DNA of 64,000 bases, taken from the NCBI GenBank assembly GCA_964635635.1, contig CAZWPE010000001.1, positions 639,020 through 703,019 of the forward strand. Reading direction: 5' to 3'. The position numbers and the translations under genes were made by a program. Below are positions 1-53,166 of the stretch, piece after piece. The stretch is from an uncultured Myxococcaceae bacterium. GTDB taxonomy: Bacteria > Myxococcota > UBA727 > JABDBI01. Under the pieces are notes generated by a model. It worked only from the letters and a program-made list of their open reading frames with translations, made no database searches and was not told where the DNA came from. The first letter of the stretch is position 1. Each line of letters starts with the position of its first letter.

Positions 1-508
1 GTGCCATCTGCTTAATCGCTTCTGGCAAATTTTTAAGCAGCTCTTGCCCGGGCGCAAAAACAACCAACAAACCTTCTGGCGGTCCATATGCGTCAGGCTG
101 ATCTTTAGAAATCGAAACTTCATTTCGAAGAAGTTCAAGCTTAAGCGCTTCTTTGGAATTAAGCTTATAGCCAGCTTCAACTTTAGCCTCTAGTTGCTCA
201 GATTCTTTTTGTGCAGTTTCCTGTGTAGAGCCATAACCTAACAGAAACTCAAGAAAATCACTGAGTTTTCCTTCTGGAAGCAATGACTGCGCGACAGTCT
301 TAATCGGTTCAATTAAAGCTGTCGTTGTATCTTCAATCAAACGCTCAAATGAACTTTTGGACTTTGGTTTGACTTCAACCCGAAAAGGATCCGGAGCCTC
401 AGACCTAAATACCGACAATCCACCAGCTGATATATTCAGCGATACGGCAAAGCTCAGAATTAGAAAAATCCTAGATTTCAAACCCAAACGCACTATATCC
501 GTGTTCAT
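1..508 (-). CDS. Partial CDS (N-terminal part; continues past window start) of a secreted hypothetical protein. ATG ~506-508, predicted signal peptide MNTDIVRLGLKSRIFLILSFAVSLNISAGG; overlaps the 3' end of mvk in another frame.
   Basis: Hand translation of the minus strand gives an open frame from ATG (~508) to the window edge with a K/R-hydrophobic-AxA-like N-terminus. Not in the ORF track because it is truncated by the window edge. Confidence 0.35.
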   Translation of the reverse strand, partial: MNTDIVRLGLKSRIFLILSFAVSLNISAGGLSVFRSEAPDPFRVEVKPKSKSSFERLIEDTTTALIEPIKTVAQSLLPEGKLSDFLEFLLGYGSTQETAQKESEQLEAKVEAGYKLNSKEALKLELLRNEVSISKDQPDAYGPPEGLLVVFAPGQELLKNLPEAIKQMA

Positions 509-1337
509 TGAATGTCTCTACTAACTGATTATTCGAATGACACAAGGCAATCACACAACCACCCCCACCTGCACCAGTGAGTTTAGCTCCAAAAGCACCA
601 TTTGAATTCGCAATCTCACATAAACGATCGAGCTCAGATGTTGATACGCCGAGCCGGCCAAGAAGCTGATGGTTTTCATTCATCAACCGTCCTATCGTCG
701 AAAGTTCACCCTCTTCTATGGCTGTCCGCATATGATGCGTCAGCTGACCAATCTCTTCAAAAATTCTCGTTACGGAAACTCGGTCTGATTCTAGAAGTTG
801 TTTGACAGCCTGAACAGCTTTTAATGTGCCTCCGTGGGGTCTAGAGACTGCAACCACTATCGGAAGTCTGGCTGGGCAAGATATTCGTTCAGCTTGTCCT
901 TTTTGAAACCAAATCATGCCTTCTTTCGCAATCACCGTGTGATCCACCCCAGAGGGGTTGCCGTGAAAAATCTTTTCAAGTTCAAGCGCCATTTTTGCAA
1001 TCTCGACTGGTGTTTGGGTTTCACCAAAATGATCAAGAATCGCGCGAATCAATCCAACAGAAAGTGCTGCAGAGCTACCTAGACCACAGCCTCCTGGGAT
1101 TTCGCTTTTTATGTTAAACTGCAGTTGCAAAATCCTAGGACCAAGCATCTGGGCAAGGCGCTCGATTAAAATCCCCCCTACCCCACTTTGCCAAAGGGGG
1201 GGAAATTGAAACCCTGGCGTATCAGATTTGCAGGCTTCCACTGATACAAATCGCGGAATCGTCGATGCGATAGCTGGGTAGCCATACACTACCGAATGCT
1301 CACCAGCTAAAATAATTTTTCCAAGTGCACGCGCCAT
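471..1337 (-). CDS. mvk: Mevalonate kinase (GHMP kinase family)
   Basis: 288 aa. N-terminal LGKIILAGEHSVVYG, GHMP motif GGCGLGSSAA, and C-terminal KLTGAGGGGCVIAL are the three canonical MVK motifs. Start overlaps the HMGR stop. Confidence 0.85.
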   Translation of the reverse strand: MARALGKIILAGEHSVVYGYPAIASTIPRFVSVEACKSDTPGFQFPPLWQSGVGGILIERLAQMLGPRILQLQFNIKSEIPGGCGLGSSAALSVGLIRAILDHFGETQTPVEIAKMALELEKIFHGNPSGVDHTVIAKEGMIWFQKGQAERISCPARLPIVVAVSRPHGGTLKAVQAVKQLLESDRVSVTRIFEEIGQLTHHMRTAIEEGELSTIGRLMNENHQLLGRLGVSTSELDRLCEIANSNGAFGAKLTGAGGGGCVIALCHSNNQLVETFNEHGYSAFGFEI

Positions 1338-2470
1338 TAAACCTGCTTTCGGTGGTGAAGAGCCATGTGGCCCGCTTGAATTCCCTCAGCTGCGAGAGCC
1401 CGCATTGCCGCAATATTTTGCGCAAGACCTACGCTCGCAATCAAACCTGATAATTGCTTCGCGCTTTTACCAAATTCACCAAGCAATTCAAGACAAGCCT
1501 GAACTGTTGGGTGTGCTTTTGTTACGCCGCCAACAACTCCAATCGCCATTGGCAATGCAATGCGAGCTTTGAGAACTTGGTGAGTATCATCAAGCTCATA
1601 GTGCGTGAGCGGCCCGTAGCCTCCGGGCTGCACAGCAGCATAGGCATGCGCCCCAGCTTCCACAGCACGCCAGTCATTGCCTGTGGCAATCACGACAGCA
1701 TCGACACCATTCATCACACCCTTATTGTGCGTGCAGGCTCGATAAGGGTCCAATCGCGCAAACTCATAACCCAGAACCATGCGCTCCGCGATTTGACGGC
1801 CATTGTCTTTGGCTGCATCGTTTGCCAGCGCTCTATAGGGAATTTCACATGAAGAACGCGCCAAACGTTCGTCACTTAAGTTAGATAAAATTTTAAATCC
1901 GACAGAGGCACCCGTTAACACTGAAATATCTGGAGCAAGACCTTCCATCATCGTATTAATTGCATTTGCCCCCATGGCATCACGGCAATCAATTCGAACT
2001 TCCACAACACCCATCAAACCACTCAAAGCCTTGAAACAAATCCTAAGACAGCCGCCGCCTCGGGATGGCAAACTGCCTGCAAGTTGATTTGCCTTCGCAA
2101 TCAATTGAAGCTCATGTGAACTAATAATATCTGCCACGCGTTCCCAATCACTGGCGCCCGTCAATTGAATTTGGCCCATCATGACGGGTTCATTCACTTC
2201 GGTCTTAAAGCCGCCTGTCAATGAAGCCAACTTTGCCATATGACTTGCAGCAGCAATCACAGACGGTTCTTCGATTGCCATCGGAATCCACACAGGTTTC
2301 CCATCAATCATAAAATGACAGGCTACGCCGAGAGGAAGTTGCATTGTGCCAACTAAATTCTCAACCATATCGTCAGCTTGCTTCAATTCAAGCTTGGCAT
2401 CCATGGAAACAGGCAAGCGTCCACGTCGTTCATCAATCGACAACGAATAAAAATTAGAAAAATCAGGCAT
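1337..2470 (-). CDS. mvaA: Hydroxymethylglutaryl-CoA reductase, class II (degradative/NAD(P)H type)
   Basis: 377 aa. VENLVG (ENVIG-like), DAMGANAINTM and GTVGG-like IGVVGG motifs. Translationally coupled to mvk and to the upstream IMPDH-like gene (8-nt overlap). Confidence 0.88.
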   Translation of the reverse strand: MPDFSNFYSLSIDERRGRLPVSMDAKLELKQADDMVENLVGTMQLPLGVACHFMIDGKPVWIPMAIEEPSVIAAASHMAKLASLTGGFKTEVNEPVMMGQIQLTGASDWERVADIISSHELQLIAKANQLAGSLPSRGGGCLRICFKALSGLMGVVEVRIDCRDAMGANAINTMMEGLAPDISVLTGASVGFKILSNLSDERLARSSCEIPYRALANDAAKDNGRQIAERMVLGYEFARLDPYRACTHNKGVMNGVDAVVIATGNDWRAVEAGAHAYAAVQPGGYGPLTHYELDDTHQVLKARIALPMAIGVVGGVTKAHPTVQACLELLGEFGKSAKQLSGLIASVGLAQNIAAMRALAAEGIQAGHMALHHRKQV

Positions 2471-3527
2471 TATGGTTCAAACTCTCTTCAACACCGGAAA
2501 TATCATGTACATGGCTTTCTCTGAGACCGGCTGAAGTCATTCGAACAAACTCTGCGTTTTCACGCAAGGCCTTTAAATTGGCTGCACCCAAATATCCCAT
2601 ACCTGCCCTAAGACCTCCCACAAGCTGGAAAATCACAGATTCAAGCGTCCCGCGATACGGAGTCAGACCGGCAACACCTTCCGGAACGAGTTTTTTAACA
2701 TCCTTCACTGAAGCTTGACCGTAGCGATCTTTGCTCCCTCGGGCCATGGCTTTGGCACTGCCCATGCCGCGGTAGTTCTTCCAAAGCTTGCCGCTATGCT
2801 CTATCACTTCGCCAGGTGATTCCGCTGTTCCTGCCAGCAAAGAACCAAGCATCACAGCATCTGCCCCTGCAGCAAGCGCTTTGACAATATCTCCAGAATG
2901 CTGAATACCGCCGTCCGCAATCAGTCCGATACCTGCTGGGCGGGTCACACTCGCCACATCTAAAATCGCAGACAACTGCGGGACCCCTACCCCCGCAACA
3001 ATGCGAGTAGTGCAAATCGACCCTGGACCAACACCCACTTTCACAACATCAACACCTGCGTCCATCAAAGCCTGAGCTGCTTTTGCTGTTGCTATATTTC
3101 CGCCAACAATCACGTGTGTTGGGTATCGTTTCTTAAGCCATGCCACAGCATCAAGTACCCCTTTGGAGTGCCCATGTGCAGTATCAACCACCAGCATTTT
3201 GACGCCGGCTTGAACCAAAGCTTCTGCCCGCGCCTCCAGTTCTGGCCCTGGACCCACGGCAGCAGCTACACAACCTATCGTTTCAGAGACTTCAAACGCC
3301 TGTTCAGGAATACTCAAGTTTTTGTGAATCACTCCAAGTCCACCGAGCTCTCCCATTGCGGTAGCCAAACGAGACTCTGTCACGGTATCCATGGCCGCAG
3401 ACAGAATAGGAATCCCTAATTCTAACCCTAGGGCTAGGCTAGCATTGGTTTCTACCTGAGTAGGCAATACTTCGGAGTAAGCAGGGAGCAACAATACATC
3501 TTGGAAAGTCAGTGCTTGTCTGAACAT
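2463..3527 (-). CDS. IMP dehydrogenase / GMP reductase family protein lacking the CBS (Bateman) subdomain
   Basis: 354 aa. N-terminal [32 protein letters not shown], catalytic-Cys loop [11 protein letters not shown], and [25 protein letters not shown]. The segment where IMPDH normally carries two CBS domains is absent. Confidence 0.75.
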
Positions 3528-3557: not shown

Positions 3558-4574
3558 TCAAACCCATAAACGCTGAACGCGCTCTGAAATTCCAGTCATG
3601 ACTTCATAATCAATCGTGCCACACATCTCAGCGATTTCAGGAATACTCATGAACGTGATGTCATCTCCCACTTTACAATCCACATCTGTCACGTCGAGTG
3701 TTATTAAATCCATCGACACCCTACCAATCATAGGTGCCTTAGAGCCATTCACCCAGGCATAACCCTGGTTCGACAATGCGCGCAGGATGCCATCCGCGTA
3801 CCCGCCCCTCACGACAGCAAGCCGGGTATCTCGCTTGGCAGTCCAGGTTTTGTCATACCCGACCCCAGTGCCAACTCGAATCGTTTTAAGCAGGGTCACC
3901 GGTGCAGTGAGAGACATGACAGAATCATAAAGCGCAATTCCTGGCCTTACCCAGGTTTCAATCCCAGGATATCGCGTCACATGCCCACTCAATATGGCTG
4001 AGCTTTTGGCTGTATGAATCACTTTTGGCGTGAGTCCTGCTTCCTGAAATTCTTGAAGTGAAGATTCAAATCGCTGAATCTGCAGGGGTGTTTCTGCGTC
4101 TGAAAAATGTGTACTGAGACCTTCCAGGGTCAATTTATGTTCCACTCGATTCCAAGCAGCAATTAAATCAGCCACCTGCGTCCACAAACAACCACCTCGT
4201 GACATCCCCGTATCAACGTCAATATGGACGGCTGCTGTCTTTTCCAACCGACACAATGCTTCAAACTCCGCAATCGATGATATCATGGGCGTAATATTAG
4301 CATTCACAATACGTTCAGCCGTCCAACTTAGCCCTGCACCAGACATTAACAAAATCTGCGCTTTGATGCCCGCACCACGCAAAGCCTCCGCCTCTTCAAT
4401 CGTTGCAACACCAAATTTATCAACACCCAATTCTTCAAAAAATCGCGCAACCGCAAGAAAACCATGCCCATAGGCATTGGCTTTAATCATTACAACCAAC
4501 CCGCACCCGGGTGCCAATTGAAGAATCCGATCATAATTCGAACGGAAAATATGAGCATTAATTAGAGCTTTCAT
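3558..4574 (-). CDS. alr: Alanine racemase
   Basis: 338 aa. PLP-lysine motif VMIKANAYGHG and typical alr length and architecture. Confidence 0.9.
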   Translation of the reverse strand: MKALINAHIFRSNYDRILQLAPGCGLVVMIKANAYGHGFLAVARFFEELGVDKFGVATIEEAEALRGAGIKAQILLMSGAGLSWTAERIVNANITPMISSIAEFEALCRLEKTAAVHIDVDTGMSRGGCLWTQVADLIAAWNRVEHKLTLEGLSTHFSDAETPLQIQRFESSLQEFQEAGLTPKVIHTAKSSAILSGHVTRYPGIETWVRPGIALYDSVMSLTAPVTLLKTIRVGTGVGYDKTWTAKRDTRLAVVRGGYADGILRALSNQGYAWVNGSKAPMIGRVSMDLITLDVTDVDCKVGDDITFMSIPEIAEMCGTIDYEVMTGISERVQRLWV

Positions 4575-5494
4575 ATTGAGTTAAGCAGCAACCTAAAAGG
4601 CTCATCCTTTGATGCCATATCCATACCTTGAGAAACAAGTCTACTCACTTGAGCTTTATCACGCTTCAAAAATTCCGCAACTTCAGTAACACTTCTTGCA
4701 CTTACCATAACTGCAGCGGTTGAAAGCAGTCTTCTCGCCATCACCAAGTCTTGTCTTCTGGATAAGCTTGACAGCATCCCAGTGTTTACATTGAGCAACA
4801 AGGCTACACGTTTTGCGAGTGCAACCAATGACAAACGTTTTCGGCGTGGTTCTTTCTTTTGAGCAATTACCAGCATAGGCTCTACAGGTTCTTCGATATC
4901 AAGAGCTGCAGATTCTACAAAACGTGCAAAAGCTTTGCGAGAAACAGTCGACAGCTCTGAGAATACTTCAAAAACTTGTTCTGACTGCAGATTACCATTC
5001 CAAGGGGTATCCAGTCCCAAATAAGCCCTGTGCGAACTCCAAGGATAGTGTTCAGCTCTATTCACGACTCCTTTTCGAACGGGCCACAGATGAATATTTC
5101 TCAAAGCTTCTAAAATTTGTTCTTCTGTCAAAACATAAGACTCAAATCTGGCCTGAAATAGAGGCCCGTGACGTTGGTATTTATGATTCAGCCTGAGCGT
5201 ATGACTTCCATGAATACGCTGCATCATTCGGGCAAGTGACAACTGCGTAGGCTTTACCAGCAAACGAAGTTCTTCTGGATGGAGACAAAAACCATAAACC
5301 TGTATAACATCTTGTCGTGAGAGATCAGCCAACAAACTTAAATAACCTTCAAAATCTTGAGATTCATAAAACAGCTTATTCCCGCTTCCAGGCTTGGCAG
5401 AAATGAGATGAGGCTGGCCCATTTGAGTCACGCGAGCTTGTCTAGGCACAGACAAAACCCCCGGGTTGATGAAATAAAGGACATGAGCCCCCAA
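4571..5494 (-). CDS. Y1 (HUH) transposase-like (COG1943 / IS200-like, REP-associated tyrosine transposase (RAYT)-like) protein fused to a C-terminal DnaA domain-IV-like HTH. Probable true start at the internal Met (coordinate 5422).
   Basis: 307 aa. HYPWSSHRAY motif typical of COG1943 transposase-like proteins. C-terminal RRQDLVMARRLLSTAAVMVSARSVTEVAEFLKRDKAQVSRLV resembles the DnaA C-terminal DNA-binding domain. 4-nt overlap with the alr start. Confidence 0.5.
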   Translation of the reverse strand: MGAHVLYFINPGVLSVPRQARVTQMGQPHLISAKPGSGNKLFYESQDFEGYLSLLADLSRQDVIQVYGFCLHPEELRLLVKPTQLSLARMMQRIHGSHTLRLNHKYQRHGPLFQARFESYVLTEEQILEALRNIHLWPVRKGVVNRAEHYPWSSHRAYLGLDTPWNGNLQSEQVFEVFSELSTVSRKAFARFVESAALDIEEPVEPMLVIAQKKEPRRKRLSLVALAKRVALLLNVNTGMLSSLSRRQDLVMARRLLSTAAVMVSARSVTEVAEFLKRDKAQVSRLVSQGMDMASKDEPFRLLLNSI

Positions 5495-6283
5495 CTTGCA
5501 CAGCGCATTGAAGCTTTGTCGCGCAGCAAACTTAATTCATTCCATGTTGATCCTTTTGGATTGGATCCTGACAGCGTTAAGCCTTACGCACCGCTGGCAC
5601 ACTGGCTGTATACAAAATATTTTCGATGCAAGGTTTATGGAAAAGCCAATATACCGACAGGGCGTGCATTGGTTATTGCAAATCATTCGGGTCAGCTGCC
5701 TTTTGATGGACTCATGATAGCCATGGCTTTCATGCTAGAAGCAAAGGAACCTAGGCTTCTCAGAGGCATGGCCGAACGCTGGAGCGCTGAACTGCCTTTT
5801 ATTAGCTCATTATTTGCCAGAACCGGAACCGTGGTAGGCGACCCAAATGTGTGCCGAGATCTTCTGGAAAACGATGAAGCCATTTTGGCCTTTCCAGAAG
5901 GTGTCCGAGGCATCTCTAAGCTTTTTAAGAATCGCTATCGTCTAGAGGCCTTTGGGACTGGGTTCATGAAATTAGCGCTTCAAACCCGTTCCCCCATCAT
6001 ACCAGTTGCTGTGATTGGCGCAGAGGAACAAGCACCCTCAATCGCGAACTTCTCGAAACTTGGCAATCTACTGGGGGCCCCTGGTTTGCCGGTGATTTTC
6101 CCCCAAATCCTACCCATTCCATTACCTGTAAGATACCGGATTTACATTGGAAAGCCCTTGAAGTTTAATCCCGAAGACCATAAAAATGACCATCTAATCA
6201 CTGCCTATACGGACCAAGTCCAATGTAAAATTCAAGGCATGATTAATCACGGGCTTAAAGTTCGTAAGCATATCTTCTGGTAA
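5483..6283 (+). CDS. Lysophospholipid / 1-acyl-sn-glycerol-3-phosphate acyltransferase family protein (PlsC-like)
   Basis: HX4D acyltransferase motif ANHSGQLPFDG and PEGVRG motif. The ORF-track start (5357) overlaps the divergent gene; the Met at 5483 is the likely start. Confidence 0.75.
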   Translation: MSPQLAQRIEALSRSKLNSFHVDPFGLDPDSVKPYAPLAHWLYTKYFRCKVYGKANIPTGRALVIANHSGQLPFDGLMIAMAFMLEAKEPRLLRGMAERWSAELPFISSLFARTGTVVGDPNVCRDLLENDEAILAFPEGVRGISKLFKNRYRLEAFGTGFMKLALQTRSPIIPVAVIGAEEQAPSIANFSKLGNLLGAPGLPVIFPQILPIPLPVRYRIYIGKPLKFNPEDHKNDHLITAYTDQVQCKIQGMINHGLKVRKHIFW

Positions 6284-6591: not shown

Positions 6592-7983
6592 ATGTTTTTG
6601 AGGCTTTTTCTTTTCCTACTCGCCATAACATCGTCATTGCGAGGAGGCGTAGCCGACGCGGCAATCCACTGCAATGTTTTGATTTTAGGTGCCGGGCCCG
6701 GGGGCGTCCATACTGCTTACCAGCTTTCAAAATTACCTAATCAAAATATTTGTGTCGTTGAAAAAGAAGACCATCTGGGTGGAAGACTTTTTGACGTCGC
6801 ACTGGATCCAACCCACCCTCAATGGGTCTATGGCATGGGTGGCCTTCGGGTAATGGAGTCTCAAAAAAATGTCTTGAATCTGGCCAAAGAAATCGGTGTT
6901 GAACTTGAATATGCGCCTTACAAAGACACACTAATTAATACGCGTGGTATTTTTGGGGCAGATTCTGGAAGTATTGCCAAGCAAGCTTACCCGCTTGTTC
7001 AAATCAGCGAAGATGATTTGTACAAAAAATTACTGACCAGCCCTGAGCGTGCCAATGCCAAAAAATATCCCAGCATACGCTCCTACATGCAAAGCGTAAT
7101 TGGCGCTGAAGCACAAACTTTTTTACATGATGTCTCTCGTTTTCGAGCAGAGTTTGAGGCTCCTATCGATGTACGTTCTTATTTGGATTATATGGACGAA
7201 GAAATGGAAACCTGTTGCAATGCCTACTACCCAACGGGTGGCATGTCCGCATTTGTTTATAAAATGGCAGATCACGCGCGTTCTCGGGGTGTTCGTTTCT
7301 TTAGTTCAGAACCTGCCATAAGCATCCACAAAGCTTTTGGACTCTATCAGGTCAAAACGCCACATTATGTTTTCGAGGGTCAAAAATTGGTGATTGCAAT
7401 TAACGCCCAAGGCTTCAAATACGTCGGTGGAGATATCGCTCGGCGAATTCAATCACAGAGACAGTTTCAAGATATACTCGGCATCAAAGTCGTGACTGTC
7501 GCACAACAATTTCCAAACGCCTGGTGGCAGAATACCAATATCAGACGTGCTTGGACCAATGAGCATTGCCTCAATGCGCTCGAAATTCCCCTGAACACCT
7601 ATGCCGTACAGCAGCGTGTCATGCGCAGTGTATATGATGATGATATGCGCTGTGTCTCATTTTGGGAAAATACTTATCGCCATTTTGGACTAAAAGGCGT
7701 TGAAACTGAAATCATGAAGGGCTTGAAGCACCTCTTTTCTGGGGCTCATATCCCGTGGCCATCAAACACAGTGATTCAATTTTGGCCAGCTGCTTGGTAC
7801 TACTTGCGGGCCGGTACTCCTTTTAGCAATCGTGAGATTGCAGAGTGGGCTGTGGAGCCGCTACCAGGTGAAGATGTTTCACTGGTTGGAGATTCTTACT
7901 ATATTCAGCGTTCCGGCTGGAGCGATGCGGCTTATAAATCTTCGATGAATACCTTAAAGAGGCGATTTGGGATGGAAAATTAG
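6592..7983 (+). CDS. Secreted FAD-dependent amine oxidase / NAD(P)-binding oxidoreductase family protein
   Basis: 463 aa. N-terminal signal peptide, then Rossmann dinucleotide motif VLILGAGPGGVHTAYQLSK. Confidence 0.6.
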   Translation: MFLRLFLFLLAITSSLRGGVADAAIHCNVLILGAGPGGVHTAYQLSKLPNQNICVVEKEDHLGGRLFDVALDPTHPQWVYGMGGLRVMESQKNVLNLAKEIGVELEYAPYKDTLINTRGIFGADSGSIAKQAYPLVQISEDDLYKKLLTSPERANAKKYPSIRSYMQSVIGAEAQTFLHDVSRFRAEFEAPIDVRSYLDYMDEEMETCCNAYYPTGGMSAFVYKMADHARSRGVRFFSSEPAISIHKAFGLYQVKTPHYVFEGQKLVIAINAQGFKYVGGDIARRIQSQRQFQDILGIKVVTVAQQFPNAWWQNTNIRRAWTNEHCLNALEIPLNTYAVQQRVMRSVYDDDMRCVSFWENTYRHFGLKGVETEIMKGLKHLFSGAHIPWPSNTVIQFWPAAWYYLRAGTPFSNREIAEWAVEPLPGEDVSLVGDSYYIQRSGWSDAAYKSSMNTLKRRFGMEN

Positions 7984-9909
7984 GAAATTAAGAGTATTCT
8001 CAGCCCTGCTCAAGGTGTCTCGACGTTTTTTAGCCTGCCCATCAGATAACGTTTCCGGCAAAAATTTGTTCAACTCAAGAAGTGCTAAGTTCGCTTCAGA
8101 GTTCCCCTGATACTCTTTTAAACCCTTTAAAACAGCAGCATGTCTGCGACCATATTCACCCAACGAGCCTAAGTCAGTTTGAGGTCCAGCATAAAGTTCT
8201 CCTATGCTCGACCAATTGTCTAGAGTTAAATCTCTTTGTTCTGGATCAGCTTGTTTGAACTCAACCAGCTCCTCTCTCATTTGCTCAATCCGTTCATCAC
8301 AAGCAGTTAAAAAATTGATTCCAAGGTGTTCATTATCTTGAGATGTAAAAATCTCGGAGTTTTTCATAGATGGACTTTCTGCTTTTCTCCACATTTGCTT
8401 AATTAAATTCTGCGCCTCTTCCAGACTCAATTCTCTATCCACTATCAATGGAACCGAAGCCACACGAACCCTGGGTCCATCCATCAATACCAATGTACGT
8501 CTAAGTTTCAATTTAGACTTCTTCTCTGACGTTGGAGCTTCTTCAACTATCCATCCTGCATGCCGATTAAACATCCCTGGTTCGTCCAGAATCATCCAAA
8601 ATGGTTTCGAATCTAAAATACCCAGCTGTTTACGCAAATAAGCATTAGCCGATTGAAAATCAGGATCCTCAATCTTCTTTCTGGAAAATGCAGCCTTGTT
8701 TTTATTCCACCTGTTCATCGTCCCTGAACTCATAATCTCAGGCATAAATGGGAGATCCGGGAAACCATCTGTATGGAATTGAGTATTAATAGAACTTCGC
8801 TGTTGAAATGCAGCTCCTATTTGCGACAATTCTGCATCCTCTGCCTCTTGAGTCAACATTAGAATTTCTGCACCAGCAGCCATAATTTCTTTCGCACCGG
8901 GTTTGCCTTTAGTTACTGTTCTTATCCACTCAATAGCCTGAGGATTATCTGCTAAAAATTTTCCAAATTTTTGTTTAGTTGTTTCTGACCAACTGAATGT
9001 AGGCCCTAGAAATGAAACTATATTTTTAAGCTCCTCATTAAGAAACCACACTTTCAGAGCCTCAGCGTGCTTCGTATCAGCACTTCTAAGCCCAAACCAA
9101 GTTGACTTTCTAAGATGGACATCAGGACGATCTCTTTCGATAATTTCAATTGCTTCCTGGAGCGTCTTGCCCTGATATTTCATTAAGTACGCCGCTAAAA
9201 CAGTCGGGCTCCGACCAACACCGCTTTTGCAATGCAAATAAACAGGGCGGGTATCTTTAGGATTAGTCAGGGCCTGATGCAAAGCCTCAACACCCCTGTT
9301 TATTTCATCAGGCTTCATGCCAACATTGTCTTGAGACTCAACAATCGTAGCTTCTGCACGCATTGCTGGATTCATGTTTTCGGCTTCCCAGTGCTCTAGA
9401 ATTGCAACACATTTGAATGCAGGCCTTCTATCCTGCTGTACGGTGCCTATAGATGGAAGTTCTTCCCAACCACCTGGGATATCAGCTCCTTTCCCCCACT
9501 GCTTTTCTCCCTTCTGATCTGGGATCATTCCCAAATAAAGCTTCCTGCTGTTTTCATCATTTGAGTATTTAATCTGATTAAAAGCTGAGCCTGAAACACC
9601 TGCCGTGCCTTTTGTGTTTGCCTTACCTGCTTTGGATAGCATAAAGGTTCTACGGAACCATAATGCAGTTTTGTAGTAGGCTTGCTTATACCAACTTGTC
9701 TCGGTAACTTCTGAATGCCGATCAGACTGAGTAAAGACATCCGACGTATCGCTCATCAGATAAGCAGAATCTCCCCGCTTTAAAGAACTATAATTTTCAG
9801 TTCTATCCATACTTGTCGGTTCGGTTCTTGGCGTAATTGGCAACTTAACATCGCTCATAATATCCCGAAGTCTATCATCCAATTGTCCTAGGAAGCATGC
9901 ATGAGCCAA
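7954..9909 (-). CDS. Large protein with a dual-specificity / tyrosine phosphatase domain (CX5R active site)
   Basis: 651 aa. VYLHCKSGVGRSPTVLAAYLM is a canonical HCxxGxxRS/T PTP/DSP P-loop. The rest has no recognisable family. 30-nt convergent overlap with the amine-oxidase gene. Confidence 0.6.
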   Translation of the reverse strand: MAHACFLGQLDDRLRDIMSDVKLPITPRTEPTSMDRTENYSSLKRGDSAYLMSDTSDVFTQSDRHSEVTETSWYKQAYYKTALWFRRTFMLSKAGKANTKGTAGVSGSAFNQIKYSNDENSRKLYLGMIPDQKGEKQWGKGADIPGGWEELPSIGTVQQDRRPAFKCVAILEHWEAENMNPAMRAEATIVESQDNVGMKPDEINRGVEALHQALTNPKDTRPVYLHCKSGVGRSPTVLAAYLMKYQGKTLQEAIEIIERDRPDVHLRKSTWFGLRSADTKHAEALKVWFLNEELKNIVSFLGPTFSWSETTKQKFGKFLADNPQAIEWIRTVTKGKPGAKEIMAAGAEILMLTQEAEDAELSQIGAAFQQRSSINTQFHTDGFPDLPFMPEIMSSGTMNRWNKNKAAFSRKKIEDPDFQSANAYLRKQLGILDSKPFWMILDEPGMFNRHAGWIVEEAPTSEKKSKLKLRRTLVLMDGPRVRVASVPLIVDRELSLEEAQNLIKQMWRKAESPSMKNSEIFTSQDNEHLGINFLTACDERIEQMREELVEFKQADPEQRDLTLDNWSSIGELYAGPQTDLGSLGEYGRRHAAVLKGLKEYQGNSEANLALLELNKFLPETLSDGQAKKRRDTLSRAENTLNFLIFHPKSPL

Positions 9910-9941: not shown

Positions 9942-10487
9942 ATGAGAAGCTTATTCTTCGCGTTCTGGGCTTGCACCCTTCTGGCCCAAAAAGATCCTTT
10001 AAAATCGGTTAAAGCCTTAGACCTGAAACGCTATATGGGCCTATGGCATGAAGTAGCTAGGCTCCCCAACTCATTTGAGCGCAACTGCGAAAAAGCAACT
10101 GCAGAGTATTTCCTCAATGATGATGGAACTGTCCGAGTTTTGAATACCTGCGTCAAAGAAAATGGATACACCAAAAACATTAAAGGCAGGGCCTATATCC
10201 CAGACCCAGACTACCCTGCTCAGTTAAAAGTTAACTTTGTACCTAAGTGGCTCAGTTGGACAGGTTTGGGTTGGGGTGACTATTGGGTAATCGATCTAGA
10301 TTCCGATTACCAATGGGCTGTGGTGAGCGAGCCCTCCCGCGAATATTTGTGGATTTTAAGCCGATCCCCCCAAATGCCGCCCGAAGTATTTGGCGGTATT
10401 GTGAATAGACTGAAAGCGAAGCAATTCGATCTAACGCACCTCTTGATTTCGCCAGACTCTAAAGCTCTCAGCCGCTTGCTCAAGTAA
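9942..10487 (+). CDS. blc: Bacterial lipocalin (outer-membrane lipoprotein Blc)
   Basis: 181 aa. LDLKRYMGLWHEVARLPNSFE, DYWVIDLDSDYQWAVVSEPSREYLWILSR match the Blc signature regions. Confidence 0.85.
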   Translation: MRSLFFAFWACTLLAQKDPLKSVKALDLKRYMGLWHEVARLPNSFERNCEKATAEYFLNDDGTVRVLNTCVKENGYTKNIKGRAYIPDPDYPAQLKVNFVPKWLSWTGLGWGDYWVIDLDSDYQWAVVSEPSREYLWILSRSPQMPPEVFGGIVNRLKAKQFDLTHLLISPDSKALSRLLK

Positions 10488-11129
10488 CATCCCATACCCA
10501 TTAAAAGCCTGCGCTCCATCTGCGTGGGCTTTTTGCATGAGAGGGGTCTCTTCTGGCACGTAGACCAAGTCATATAACACCTGGCCGGGATTAAACCCTG
10601 TCTGCGCAAGCAAATCTGGGTCCAGGCCTGGTGTGCAATTGACAGTCAAGTACGCTGGCTTAGGTATGCCCCCTAAACGCCTGGTCCAGGTATCAATAGA
10701 GCCTGCACCTGCTTGTTCCAAAGCGTATTTAATTGCCTTTGAAGAGCCACCTGCTCCTAAAATCAGAACCGGCTTACCTTTGATATCAATACCCTTGGCA
10801 GCCAAATCTCCCAAGAAACCATGCGCATCGGTGTTATCCCCCATCAGCTTGTTACCTTGCCAGAACAGCGTGTTAACTGCCCCAATTGCCAAAGCTCGTT
10901 CTGTGAGAGCATCCACATAAGCCATCACAGATTCTTTGTGGGGAGTTGTCACATTCGCACCGCGAAAGTTATTGGCCCGAAAACGTTGAATCGCCGACTC
11001 TAAATCTTCTGGCTTGGTTGGCAAGAGGCAATAGTCCCAATCCAGTCCAGCTTGTTTAAAAGCCGTATTATGAATCTCCGGGCTCTTAGAGTAAGTCACC
11101 GGCCAACCAAAAATTCCAAAATGCTTCAC
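10431..11129 (-). CDS. aroE: Shikimate 5-dehydrogenase. ORF track extends to 11225; the GTG at 11129 giving MKHFGIFGWP... is the likelier start.
   Basis: FGIFGWPVTYSKSPEIHNTAF, VTTPHK and GDNTD motifs. 57-nt convergent overlap with blc. Confidence 0.85.
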   Translation of the reverse strand: MKHFGIFGWPVTYSKSPEIHNTAFKQAGLDWDYCLLPTKPEDLESAIQRFRANNFRGANVTTPHKESVMAYVDALTERALAIGAVNTLFWQGNKLMGDNTDAHGFLGDLAAKGIDIKGKPVLILGAGGSSKAIKYALEQAGAGSIDTWTRRLGGIPKPAYLTVNCTPGLDPDLLAQTGFNPGQVLYDLVYVPEETPLMQKAHADGAQAFNGYGMLLEQAAESFRVWRNQEVR

Positions 11130-40721: not shown

Positions 40722-42059
40722 CTACGCAAAAGGATTCTTGATTGGAGTCAGCATTTTCTTGATAAACTGAATATGGGGCTTAGTTTCCAAACGACCATTT
40801 TCAATCGCTCGATCCAGTTCCTGAGGTGAAGGAACCACATTGATGGGAGACAACACTTTCTGATAGGCAATCACCAAATCTGAATGTTTATAGCCTTCTT
40901 TGCTATTTTCCGCTGCAATATGCATCAGTGGCAGGAATAGCCAGTGGCGTTTCCAATTCGGTGAAAATGCATCCAGCGATAAAACAAATGGATCCTGTAG
41001 CTGAGCCCTGGCTGCCTTGGCAGGCAAATTGTCTGCTAAACCACCATCCAAAAGGCGACTGACACTATTTTGGTGTAAAATTTCTCTGATCAACGGAACC
41101 ATATGAGGATCGTTTCTGAGAACATCATAATGAAACAAACCTGGGACTGATGCTGAAAAACCAACCGCATCAATCACATCAAATTCTCGGCTTAACTCAT
41201 CAGCCCCCAAGTAAATGGCTTTAAGCGGCTTTTGGGCAATCTTAATCAAACTTTGAATAATGCTTTTTTCCTGCCTCTTAATCTCTGTCGGCAATATTTG
41301 GTGTGCATCAAGCCAATCTGCTTCACCCAATTTTTCCACATCAGATTCTGGAATACCAGCCACCGTTACGAGCAGAGGTATCGCAAGTTCCCTGAGATGC
41401 ATCGCTCGCCCATCTTTTTGAAACTCTGCTCCAAAAACATCATGTAGATTTAATCTAAAACTTGCCGGCAAACCAAAACGACTCCCCTGGTCTGAACTCT
41501 GGGTGAGACGACTCCAAACCAAAGGAAGTGTCACACGCTTCAAATCCTCAACATCAAAATGTATGGTTTTGGCTCGATACGCCCCTAAAATAGCCCCCAT
41601 AGAGCTACCCGCAATGATATCTGGGACAATTCCAGCTTCCTCAAACTCAGCAAATGCTCCCGCATAAACAAAACCTGTGCCCCCACCCCCACCGAGCACC
41701 AGAGCAAATGGACGTTTCGAAATTGAATCTTCCAAGGCCTTCACATCTAAACGTGAGCCAAACAGTGAGCTTAACTCTTTGAGCTCAGCCTGTAGAAGGT
41801 TGGCAATAGAGGCAACGCTTTTTACCCCATCTGCCAGCATGAGTGTATGCAGACGCTCACGATAGACATCCGTAGAATGCCCAATATCTATGGGATTTTT
41901 ACCGGGTATTTGTGAAATCCGTGCCAGAGATAGAGCCCAGCGCATGATTGATTCATCTTCGCTGGAGAGCCGAACAGAGCTTTCGCACAAAGAACGTACG
42001 AGATCGCGTTCCATTTGAGCGAGTTCCTTGATAAAAGCTCTGGTATCTTGCTCCACCAA
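40722..42059 (-). CDS. Patatin-like phospholipase family protein
   Basis: 445 aa. Oxyanion GGGGGTG, nucleophile elbow AGSSMG, catalytic-Asp motif DGGLADNLP. Confidence 0.85.
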   Translation of the reverse strand: MVEQDTRAFIKELAQMERDLVRSLCESSVRLSSEDESIMRWALSLARISQIPGKNPIDIGHSTDVYRERLHTLMLADGVKSVASIANLLQAELKELSSLFGSRLDVKALEDSISKRPFALVLGGGGGTGFVYAGAFAEFEEAGIVPDIIAGSSMGAILGAYRAKTIHFDVEDLKRVTLPLVWSRLTQSSDQGSRFGLPASFRLNLHDVFGAEFQKDGRAMHLRELAIPLLVTVAGIPESDVEKLGEADWLDAHQILPTEIKRQEKSIIQSLIKIAQKPLKAIYLGADELSREFDVIDAVGFSASVPGLFHYDVLRNDPHMVPLIREILHQNSVSRLLDGGLADNLPAKAARAQLQDPFVLSLDAFSPNWKRHWLFLPLMHIAAENSKEGYKHSDLVIAYQKVLSPINVVPSPQELDRAIENGRLETKPHIQFIKKMLTPIKNPFA

Positions 42060-42119
42060 TAGCTAGTCTACCCAATGGAGAACTCAAATGACAAGCGTGG
42101 ATTCCAGCTTTATTTCAGA

Positions 42120-42177
42120 CTATTTTGCACGGTTTTGCAAAATAGTCGTGACTTTTTTGCAAAACCGTGCAAAATAG
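42120..42177. promoter_or_regulatory. Perfect 22-bp inverted repeat (ctattttgcacggttttgcaaa ... tttgcaaaaccgtgcaaaatag). Candidate operator or leader hairpin ending ~7 bp before the ATPase start codon.
   Basis: The arms are exact reverse complements separated by ~14 nt. Lies in the divergent patatin / AAA-ATPase intergenic region. No SD visible between it and the ATG. Confidence 0.5.
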
Positions 42178-42183
42178 TCAGAT

Positions 42184-43299
42184 ATGGAACGGGCTCAGAA
42201 ACAGGCCATCTTAAGAGATTTAAATAAAAAAATGGTTTTTCTTGCAGGTCCGCGCCAGGCAGGAAAGACCACTTTGGCCAAGGAAATCGCCAAAGAGTTT
42301 GGTTCGTCTGTATATTTAAACTACGATAGTTTGACCGACCGGAAGATTATTTTAAAAGAGGAGTGGCTGCCTTCTGTTGAATTTTTGATTTTGGATGAGA
42401 TTCATAAAATGCCCAAATGGAAGAATTATTTAAAGGGCATCTATGACACCAAACCTGCTCATCAGAAGATTTTAGTGACTGGCAGTGCTCGTTTGGAAGT
42501 TTTTAGAAAAGTTGGAGATTCTTTAGCAGGTCGTTATTATTTGCATCGATTGATGCCGCTTTCACCCGCAGAATGTGAAAAAATGGGGGTTGCTTACACC
42601 CTTGACCATTTTATGGAACGCGGTGGATTCCCAGAACCGTTTTTTGCTGAAAATGCCGTAGATGCTGGTCGTTGGCGGATGCAATATATCGACAGCTTGC
42701 TTCGAGAAGATGTGCTCAATTTTGACAACATTCAAAATCTTAATTCTATACGTTTGGTGTTTGATTTATTGCGCGAACGCGTCGGCTCGCCGGTCTCTTA
42801 TAGTTCAATCGCTGAGGATTCTCAGTTGGCGCCCAATACCGTTAAAAAATACATTCAAATTTTAGAAGCACTTTATGTCGTGTTTCGAGTGACACCCTTC
42901 TCAAAAAATATTGCTCGTAGCTTACTGAAAGAACCTAAGATTTATTTTTTTGATACGGGATTGGTCAAAGGCGATCTTGGAGCAAAGTTTGAAAATTTGA
43001 TGGCAACTTGTTTGATAAAGCATGTTTACGAAAAAATAGACTATCAGGCAGAGCCGTATTCTTTGCACTATCTCAACACCAAAGATCGAAAAGAAGTCGA
43101 TTTTGCATTGATCAATGACAATCGAGTCGAGCAGATTATCGAGGCTAAATACTCAGATGGCTCAGTGACTAATGCGCTTCGATATTTTCATGAAAAGCAT
43201 CGACTAACGGCCACTCAAGTTGTCAAAGAACTTAAACATGAGCGGACAGACAAGGGTATTCATGTGTTGACAGGAATCAATATGCTCAAGGCGCTATAG
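42184..43299 (+). CDS. AAA+ ATPase of the COG1373 family (AAA_14 N-domain plus DUF4143 C-domain, a predicted PD-(D/E)xK-fold nuclease)
   Basis: 371 aa. Walker A LAGPRQAGKTTL, Walker B LILDEIH. C-terminal KEVDFAL...IIEAKYSD D...ExK-like motif. Confidence 0.7.
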   Translation: MERAQKQAILRDLNKKMVFLAGPRQAGKTTLAKEIAKEFGSSVYLNYDSLTDRKIILKEEWLPSVEFLILDEIHKMPKWKNYLKGIYDTKPAHQKILVTGSARLEVFRKVGDSLAGRYYLHRLMPLSPAECEKMGVAYTLDHFMERGGFPEPFFAENAVDAGRWRMQYIDSLLREDVLNFDNIQNLNSIRLVFDLLRERVGSPVSYSSIAEDSQLAPNTVKKYIQILEALYVVFRVTPFSKNIARSLLKEPKIYFFDTGLVKGDLGAKFENLMATCLIKHVYEKIDYQAEPYSLHYLNTKDRKEVDFALINDNRVEQIIEAKYSDGSVTNALRYFHEKHRLTATQVVKELKHERTDKGIHVLTGINMLKAL

Positions 43300-49140: not shown

Positions 49141-49230
49141 GGAGAGATGGCCGAGCGGTTTAAGGCACTGGACTTGAAATCCAGCGTAGGGGTAACTCTA
49201 CCGTGAGTTCGAATCTCACTCTCTCCGCCA
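49141..49230 (+). tRNA. tRNA-Ser (anticodon UGA), class II with long variable arm
   Basis: Acceptor stem ggagaga/tctctcc + G + CCA. Anticodon loop cTTGAaa. TPsiC stem gagTTCGAATCtc. Extra arm gcgtaggggtaactctacc. Confidence 0.9.
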
Positions 49231-49303
49231 TCCGACGCCTTTTCGCCTTTTTCTATTCAGAGGATTGTAGCATAATAGATTCCTAACATATGCGTGTCAG
49301 ACG

Positions 49304-51200: not shown

Positions 51201-51312
51201 CATCTGTCAATCCTGTTCTTTTTAAGCCGAATACCTTTGCAATCTGGCTACAAGCTTGCATTACATCAGTTCACTAGTGGTAATGGTAGTCAGACGCCTT
51301 TTCGCCTTTTCC
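51201..51312. repeat. Copy 1 of a ~100-bp intergenic repeat family ending in tandem motif (cagacgccttttcgccttttcc = RC GGAAAAGGCGAAAAGGCGTCTG)
   Basis: ~80% identical over ~100 bp to 63040..63146. Core agtggtaatggtagtcagacgccttttcgcctttt is shared with 53098..53166 (inverted). The 18-mer gacgccttttcgcctttt also occurs just 3' of tRNA-Ser (49232..49249). Confidence 0.5.
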
Positions 51313-51324
51313 GCTTCGATAGCC

Positions 51325-52785: not shown

Positions 52786-53097
52786 TAATCAAATCAATTG
52801 CTTTAATTGCTTTGTTTTGAAAATAATTTCAATTGTTTTTTGTTTGTTTGCTTGTTTTTAAACAATTGTTTTTATGGTAAAACAGGCGAATAGGCATCAG
52901 GCACGCACATTTTGGCAACTGGCATCTAATGGTTTCATAAGATTTGTGTGGGTGCCTCGTATCTGACGCCTATTGGCCTTTGAAAGCTGTTGGAGCAGGG
53001 CATTTGTCAGAAAGACAGCCCTACTGGGACAGATTGGTATCTGAAATAAACCTTCGCTTGCAGCTTTAATCTTTTGCAGAAGCTGCTGCTGCTGCTG

Positions 53098-53166
53098 AGA
53101 AAAGGGAAAAGGCGTCAGGCTACCATTACCACTACTTCCAGAAAGCCAATTTGTGGCTTCTGATCA
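53098..53166. repeat. Copy 3 (opposite orientation) of the intergenic repeat family, upstream of the DEAD-box helicase
   Basis: gaaaagggaaaaggcgtcaggctaccattaccactacttcc = RC of agtggtaatggtagcctgacgccttttcccttttc. Adjacent (GCT)5 run. Confidence 0.4.

Follow-up and report, generated by a model that had tools for sequence, protein, structure and literature searches.

A 64,000-nucleotide stretch of contig CAZWPE010000001.1, from an uncultured Myxococcaceae bacterium (hereafter the window), carries a minus-strand gene whose product appears to join a Y1 tyrosine transposase domain to a domain resembling the DNA-binding domain IV of DnaA. The locus raises the question of whether such a fusion is a working transposase, the remains of one, or a protein put to another use by its host. 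Transposases of the REP-associated tyrosine transposase (RAYT) type, where REP stands for repetitive extragenic palindrome, are the textbook "domesticated transposases" of bacteria, and to our knowledge all described RAYT groups keep their nuclease site. A preliminary description had proposed that the gene, rather than being an insertion sequence (IS), codes for a DNA-binding protein domesticated from a transposase, and that it might be connected with the spread of REP-like palindromes present in the window. The analysis presented here bears out the first proposal and argues against the second. With a probability of about 0.7, the product is a domesticated pseudo-transposase acting as a sequence-specific DNA-binding, probably regulatory, protein.

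Domain architecture and the former active site

The gene (4571..5449, minus strand; GTG start at 5449, TGA stop at 4571-4573) encodes 292 aa. Profile searches with the single sequence remained below threshold for both halves of the protein (Pfam Y1_Tnp, 18.5 bits with a cut-off of 23; Pfam Bac_DnaA_C, 18.3 bits with a cut-off of 31.5; NCBIfam REP_Tyr_transpos, 44 bits with a cut-off of 80), and the match to the TIGR00362 DnaA model was limited to its C-terminal positions 338-430. At the family level the assignment was clear, with 24 of 30 aligned homologues matching each Pfam domain (best E-values of 6e-8 and 3.5e-8). Searching the Protein Data Bank (PDB) with sequences and profiles returned nothing useful, and fold comparison was needed. 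A Foldseek search with an AlphaFold2 model (mean predicted local distance difference test score, pLDDT, of 87) agreed with both assignments, confirming on the predicted structure that a Y1 fold and a DnaA domain IV fold are both present, as the preliminary description had supposed. The RayT-type Y1/HUH transposase fold (HUH, His-hydrophobic-His) occupies residues 1-185 (4895..5449, minus strand) and the DnaA domain IV fold residues 206-292 (4574..4834, minus strand). They are separated by a linker of residues 186-205 (4835..4894, minus strand), which corresponds to the length-variable region of the alignment and is modelled with low confidence (pLDDT below 50 for residues 190-202). No Pfam or NCBIfam match to the AAA+ domain III or to domains I-II of DnaA was found in the protein. 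Searches of defence and phage libraries gave no hits, and the curated NCBIfam, PADLOC and PHROG collections contain no model for the family.

The catalytic residues of the Y1 domain, whose integrity the preliminary description had left to be checked, proved to be missing. The sequences used here for E. coli RayT and for residues 374-467 of DnaA are identical to those in the PDB. When the family profile was aligned with RayT using hhalign, the segment VDY115IYINPV paired with LRN118IHLWPV, placing N118 opposite the nucleophilic Y115, and RayT H59 and H61 aligned with E60 and R62. The former HUH motif thus reads Glu60-Leu61-Arg62 (GAA CTT CGT; 5264..5272, minus strand), as judged from alignment with active relatives and with H59-M-H61 of E. 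coli RayT, and the former catalytic helix reads N118-I-H-L-W122 (5084..5098, minus strand), as judged from hhalign and from multiple alignments.

These replacements extend to the whole group of close homologues. We compared 119 close homologues (250 aa or longer) with about 140 next-nearest two-domain relatives, drawn from a search of 1.8 billion representative proteins. HxH was found in none of the 119 close homologues, ExR in 113 and the Tyr in one, whereas 122 of the approximately 140 next-nearest relatives retained both HxH and Tyr. We refer to the two groups as the inactivated clade and the active relatives. The active relatives display the canonical LMxNHxHLL and VRYIHLNPVRAG motifs, which in the inactivated clade have become CLxxxExRLV and VRxxHLWPVR. 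Column by column, His at position 60 (100% of active relatives) is replaced by Glu (100% of the clade), His at position 62 (100%) by Arg (100%), Tyr at position 83 (91%) by His (97%), and Asn at position 122, four residues after the Tyr (100%), by Trp (93%), while Tyr at position 118 (100%) gives way to a variable residue (S/W/N/A/G). The Asn at Tyr+4 is presumably the counterpart of the third metal-binding residue in IS608 TnpA, in which case that ligand would also have been lost. In these alignments both metal-binding His residues and the nucleophile are replaced clade-wide, and the protein is predicted to be incapable of nicking DNA by the Y1 mechanism. What has been kept includes the HYPWSSHRAY motif noted in the preliminary description, located at residues 134-143; its serine motif Y135-P-W-S138-S139-H is conserved in at least 91% of the clade and is shared with the active relatives.

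Average-linkage clustering placed all inactivated sequences in one cluster of 127 that contained no active member, with a mean identity of 51% within the clade (minimum 31%) and of 27% to the active relatives, a pattern that fits a single ancient inactivation. In addition, scattered members of the otherwise active family (P0139, P0149, P0158, P0168, P0194 and P0245) have each lost, independently, at least one HUH or Tyr residue, and loss of catalysis may have been repeated within the Y1-DnaA_C architecture.

The combination of Y1 and Bac_DnaA_C domains is that of TnpA_Y1 subclass 2.1 (subgroup 2.1.2) in the classification of Quentin, Siguier, Chandler and Fichant (2018, PMC6006769), who equate this subclass with the terminal inverted repeat (TIR)-associated tyrosine transposases, or TIRYTs, of Di Nocera et al. 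(2013, PMC3733652). Like these proteins, the family has a RayT-like Y1 core, the YPWSS serine motif, a C-terminal Bac_DnaA_C-like helix-turn-helix and a length of about 290-320 aa, and its nearest database relatives (25-36% identity) are of this type. HUH and Tyr are conserved in all TIRYTs (PMC3733652), many of which are flanked by long TIRs with GGGGWSAS. The inactivated clade, in contrast, has a Glu-hydrophobic-Arg motif, no Tyr, Trp at Tyr+4, no TIRs, conserved synteny and an invariant recognition helix. E. coli RayT (TnpA_REP, YafM; 4ER8), with which the protein shares about 13-16% sequence identity, lacks a DnaA-like domain; it is flanked by REPs and active as a nuclease (H59, H61, Y115). 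Unlike TnpA of IS200/IS605 elements (2VJV, 2XM3, 2F4F), the protein comes without subterminal hairpins, a tnpB partner, multiple copies or catalytic residues. The gene is clearly derived from RAYT/TIRYT/IS200-type elements, and stands outside the active ones. A literature search found no description of a clade-wide inactivated, vertically inherited Y1-DnaA_C family, and turned up only the 2018 classification paper.

Host-gene behaviour and the REP-like elements

In a scan of one genome per GTDB species, 22 loci were recovered from 22 different assemblies, each with a single copy. All of these were metagenome-assembled genomes (MAGs) of Myxococcota or "Deltaproteobacteria", apart from one titled Methanobacteriota. 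The latter (L004, JABDBI010000014.1, 'Methanobacteriota archaeon') shows the bacterial acyltransferase / Y1-DnaA_C / alr synteny and is probably mis-binned. Within the window, no paralogue of the gene was detected. Neither inverted repeats nor hairpins, REP-like ones included, were found flanking it, no second IS open reading frame (ORF) lies beside it in the ORF list, and no GGGGWSAS TIR motif occurs within 4.8 kb, the nearest GGGG[AT][CG]A[CG] being at 10273. These results agree with the earlier impression that a second ORF and terminal hairpins are lacking, and together with the copy number they do not describe an ordinary IS200/IS605 element.

The neighbourhood is also conserved. A divergently transcribed acyltransferase gene adjoins the gene in about 11 loci, and alr lies downstream in 8-9, with protein identities ranging from 42 to 90%. 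A tRNA-synt_1b gene lies beyond the acyltransferase, and FtsK is encoded a few genes downstream in two loci. A second stable context consists of a gene for a STAND/AAA_16-TPR NTPase of approximately 1,240 aa upstream and a 5'-nucleotidase gene downstream; in L025 (1161-4874) and L027 (1175-4945) the STAND/AAA_16-TPR gene is directly upstream of, and on the same strand as, the inactivated Y1-DnaA_C gene.

Selection on the gene was estimated by comparing each gene with its orthologue in L023, the locus of the closest relative. The ratio of nonsynonymous to synonymous substitution rates (dN/dS) of the Y1-DnaA_C gene, approximately 0.045 at 90% amino acid identity, is close to that of the IMPDH-like gene (0.038) and below those of the HMG-CoA reductase (0.060), acyltransferase (0.073) and alr (0.147) genes. 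The gene is under strong purifying selection and is neither an IS nor a decaying relic. With a single copy, conserved synteny, purifying selection and a location off mobile elements, it has the attributes of a domesticated transposase in the sense of Bertels et al. (2017, PMC5581495).

A decaying IS or RAYT relic with no present function would account for the missing catalytic residues, and Quentin et al. discarded Y1 sequences lacking the motifs as probably non-functional (PMC6006769). More than 120 homologues, some with as little as about 31% identity, nevertheless carry the ORF undamaged and at full length, and the dN/dS of the gene lies below those of alr and the adjoining acyltransferase gene. 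An alignment of 30 sequences contains 35 invariant columns, and the replacements are themselves fixed (E60 and R62 in 100%, W122 in 93%). We therefore regard a relic as extremely improbable. Bertels et al. (2017, PMC5581495) have argued that RAYTs in general are domesticated and housekeeping-like, and the present gene resembles them in being single-copy and behaving as a host gene; that study did not examine its RAYT groups for loss of catalytic motifs and mentions catalysis once. Here, the fold and a fixed DNA-reading helix have been kept without the chemistry, and the selection acting on them matches in strength that on genes of core metabolism. The Y1/DnaA-IV scaffold thus has a catalysis-independent function worth keeping. 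The labels "transposase" and "RayT" are misleading on these Myxococcota genes.

The second proposal concerns the REP-like palindromes of the window. A 39-nt element, ATCGTCATTGCGAGGAGGCG..GCCGA.GC.GCAATCCA, occurs in two copies that are 90% identical, one at 6630-6668 (plus strand) inside the amine-oxidase ORF 6592-7983, the other at 34864-34902 (minus strand) inside the 297-aa ORF 34110-35003, called pdxA in the preliminary description only. Both copies are in frame and encode SSLRGG[VE]A[DE]AAIH. The CGTC tag, the stem starting with AT and the CCA tail are those of the CGTC-tagged REP class, whose members "apparently lack a dedicated transposase" (PMC3733652). Among 28 sampled genome regions (the window and 27 other loci), the element was found in two and was absent from 26 of the 27 other loci. 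The sole other locus, L016, carries canonical CGTC-tagged REPs (CGTCATTGCGAGCGCAGCGCGGCAATCCA) at 6887-6960 and 10719-10760, including one head-to-head pair just downstream of the acyltransferase gene and a single copy about 1.7 kb downstream of the Y1-DnaA_C gene. The element does not flank the gene in the window, where the nearest copy is 1.2 kb away with two genes in between, and it is absent from the orthologous site in L023. As single-stranded DNA (ssDNA) the two window copies fold no better than shuffled sequences (z about 0.2-0.3). The element was rejected as a Y1 substrate, given the absence of folding above shuffles and of the element at 26 of 27 loci and at the L023 site.

A working REP- or TIR-associated tyrosine transposase (RAYT or TIRYT) that mobilises these palindromes would explain why RayT is both the fold and the top profile match, why the protein has the YPWSS serine motif known from subclasses 2.1-2.3 (PMC6006769), and why a CGTC-tagged element is found twice in the window and in canonical form in L016. 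This explanation is very improbable, because canonical catalysis is refuted by the sequence: across the clade, other residues stand in place of the HUH His pair, the nucleophilic Tyr and the Tyr+4 Asn. Moreover, the gene shows the copy number, synteny and selection of a housekeeping gene, the element is confined to the two regions, and CGTC REPs have never been tied to a Y1 gene (PMC3733652). Nor does the gene have the flanking REP or REPIN sequences by which a RAYT or REPtron is recognised. The possible role in spreading REPs that had been suggested for the gene is therefore not supported, since the dead active site excludes an enzymatic link to the REP-like elements.

A DnaA-like reading head and its possible targets

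We take the base-contacting DnaA residues of the 1J1V complex to be R399 (the minor-groove Arg), P423, D433, H434, T435 and H439, their positions having been confirmed against the 1j1v sequence. Alignment of the C-domain with 1j1v using hhalign gave R399=R231, P423=T255, R432=R263, D433=D264, H434=K265, T435=A266, T436=Q267 and H439=R270. As in DnaA domain IV (1J1V, 3PVP), the equivalents of R399, R432 and D433 are conserved. Four of the six base-contacting positions differ, with P423, H434, T435 and H439 replaced by fixed T, K, A and R, and the protein has neither domains I-III nor the AAA+ module of DnaA. The recognition-helix segment R263-D-K-A-Q-V-S-R-L-V-S-Q-G275 (4625..4663, minus strand), equivalent to R432-DHTTVLHA of DnaA in the hhalign comparison (recognition helix RDKAQVSRLVSQG), is essentially invariant in the inactivated clade, whereas the same columns are highly variable in the active relatives. 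D264, K265, Q267, S269, R270, L271, Q274 and G275 are present in 100% of the clade. Over the whole C-domain, the mean frequency of the top residue is 0.70 in the clade versus 0.32 in the active relatives. These features suggest a DnaA-like docking on double-stranded DNA (dsDNA), with a target sequence that would be different from that of DnaA and conserved across the clade. With four base-contacting residues replaced, the target is probably not a DnaA box, and DnaA-box specificity is not expected.

We propose that the ancestor was a protein of the TnpA_Y1 subclass 2.1 / TIRYT type, in which a RayT-like HUH/Tyr nuclease was already fused to a DnaA-domain-IV-like helix-turn-helix. In the ancestor of what is now a clade of uncultured Myxococcota, the whole active site would have been lost on one occasion, with His-U-His turning into Glu-U-Arg (U, hydrophobic), the Tyr+4 Asn into Trp, and the nucleophilic Tyr giving way to a small or aromatic residue that varies among members. 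Following inactivation, the gene would have been retained as a single-copy, vertically inherited host gene. The protein would no longer cut or join DNA, but would bind a specific dsDNA sequence through its DnaA-IV-like domain, with the inert but intact Y1 fold serving as a second nucleic-acid-binding or oligomerisation module. Its most likely role would be that of a sequence-specific regulator, with its own operon and the divergent PlsC-type acyltransferase gene as possible targets. We infer that the operon in this genome supplies envelope precursors: alr provides D-Ala, the mevalonate genes provide the isoprenoid carrier and a PlsC-type acyltransferase gene is the neighbour. Questions about what proteins of this type bind could be addressed cleanly in this family, which has a single protein, presumably a single conserved target and no background of transposition.

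Several observations weigh against a regulatory DNA-binding protein of this kind. No DNA target emerged, and no operator-like motif is shared upstream of the gene across 24 loci, as judged by visual comparison of 140-nt regions and a 9-mer census allowing one mismatch. The acyltransferase/alr synteny is not universal, and purely local regulation is therefore not the whole story. The conserved residues E60, R62, H83 and H120 line the former active site, making another chemistry formally possible. The dS of the gene, 1.3, is near saturation, so that its dN/dS is approximate. Finally, all of the evidence is computational, and the family members all come from uncultured MAGs. Among the candidates considered as operators, the words returned by the 9-mer census were rejected as GC-rich coding-bias words, and a GCGCTAAC-like word was set aside as it occurs upstream of some high-GC orthologues only and is not general.

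The conserved R399, R432 and D433 equivalents could instead indicate a replication-linked factor, in which the DnaA-IV-like domain would act on DnaA boxes or on origin or fork DNA while the Y1 fold holds ssDNA. Such a protein would compete or cooperate with DnaA at TTATCCACA-like boxes or at oriC, or would be targeted to the replication fork. Y1 domains bind ssDNA hairpins (4er8), targeting to the fork by the DnaA-type domain has been proposed for subclass 2.1 by Quentin et al. (PMC6006769), and FtsK is encoded nearby in the two loci mentioned above. However, each of the four base-contacting positions that differ from DnaA has become fixed for another residue, the window shows no enrichment of DnaA boxes (13 observed versus 14.7 expected), no replication genes adjoin the gene, and the absence of a GC-skew switch means that neither an origin nor a terminus lies in the window. 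We consider a replication role unlikely.

The protein might also be a non-catalytic, genome-wide reader of REP-type or hairpin DNA, such as the orphan CGTC REPs, with a role in the nucleoid or in RNA/DNA structure. Its RayT fold is intact, and the conserved basic residues R3, R6, R101, R117 and R125 are shared with the active relatives; CGTC-type elements occur in both the window and L016, and CGTC REPs have no known partner protein (PMC3733652). Yet the window copies do not fold beyond their shuffled counterparts, the element shows no positional association with the gene, and only two of the 28 regions contain it, although the reading head does not vary among them. A reader of this kind is improbable, and a binding link between the protein and the REP-like elements would be a low-probability speculation. 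In a broader version, which we hold to be unlikely, the dead Y1 fold would be a structure-specific reader of single-stranded or hairpin DNA, paired with a DnaA-type reader of double-stranded DNA, and Myxococcota would have a housekeeping chromosome protein of a new class. If this were true, its role would go beyond that of an ordinary transcription factor acting locally: it might recognise a conserved chromosomal site during replication, or alternatively be the long-missing partner of the orphan CGTC-tagged REP elements.

Gene start, neighbouring genes and other repeats

The minus-strand ORF 4571..5494 is present, and the preliminary description had extended the gene to its upper end, but the TTG at 5494 is merely the longest possible start. 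The N-termini of orthologues read MPRxxR, in which over 90% of members have R3 and R6, and align at the GTG at 5449. The identical database protein P0001, also of 292 aa, agrees with this start. The gene therefore probably begins at 5449 rather than at 5494.

The stop codon overlaps the alr start codon by four nucleotides in the sequence ATGA (4571..4574, minus strand; sequence and ORF coordinates), as had been noted earlier, and the same overlap is found in L001, L002, L003 and L023. The alanine racemase gene alr (3558..4574, minus strand; Pfam Ala_racemase_N and Ala_racemase_C) is followed by genes for an IMPDH-family protein, HMG-CoA reductase and a GHMP (mevalonate-type) kinase (471..3527, minus strand; Pfam and coordinates), all as previously identified. 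Relative to the preceding gene, the IMPDH-family gene is separated by a 30-nt gap, the HMG-CoA reductase gene overlaps by 8 nt and the GHMP kinase gene by 1 nt. It is probable that alr is co-transcribed with the Y1-DnaA_C gene, and possible that it is translationally coupled to it. The view of the gene as the head of an alr-mevalonate operon thus holds for the tight packing in the window, but only L001, L002 and L023, the closest relatives, share the linkage to the mevalonate genes. In L023, whose protein is 90% identical, a 625-aa Ser/Thr kinase gene (7931-9808) lies between alr and the IMPDH-like gene, and the operon structure is therefore not fixed even among close relatives.

On the other side, a divergent intergenic region of 33 nt (5450..5482) separates the gene from the PlsC-type acyltransferase gene (5483-6283, plus strand; Pfam). 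Its length is conserved, and its sequence partly so, in the five closest genomes. With only 33 nt between the divergent starts, each promoter would have to lie inside the coding sequence of the other gene. A sigma-70 promoter scan found nothing upstream of the Y1-DnaA_C gene, and a terminator search gave just weak terminator-like stems within coding regions. A search against Rfam identified one tRNA only, far from the gene. The GC content of the gene is in line with that of the surrounding region.

Further features were observed elsewhere in the window. The minus-strand gene at 7954-9909 encodes a 651-aa protein whose only recognised domain is a central dual-specificity phosphatase (DSPc) domain of eukaryotic type. 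The divergent intergenic region of the ORFs 40722-42059 (minus strand) and 42184-43299 (plus strand) holds a near-perfect palindrome of 74 bp (42112-42185), which is built from two 30-nt units (GACTATTTTGCACGGTTTTGCAAAATAGTC) and has the look of a double operator. Lastly, a family of 30-90-nt repeats with the common sequence ...AGTGGTAATGGTAGYCMGACGCCTTTTC... is found in both orientations at 49231-49258, 51219-51317, 53097-53137, 62936-63033 and 63063-63161, with a local hairpin pair at 62936-63033 and a tRNA nearby at 49141-49227.

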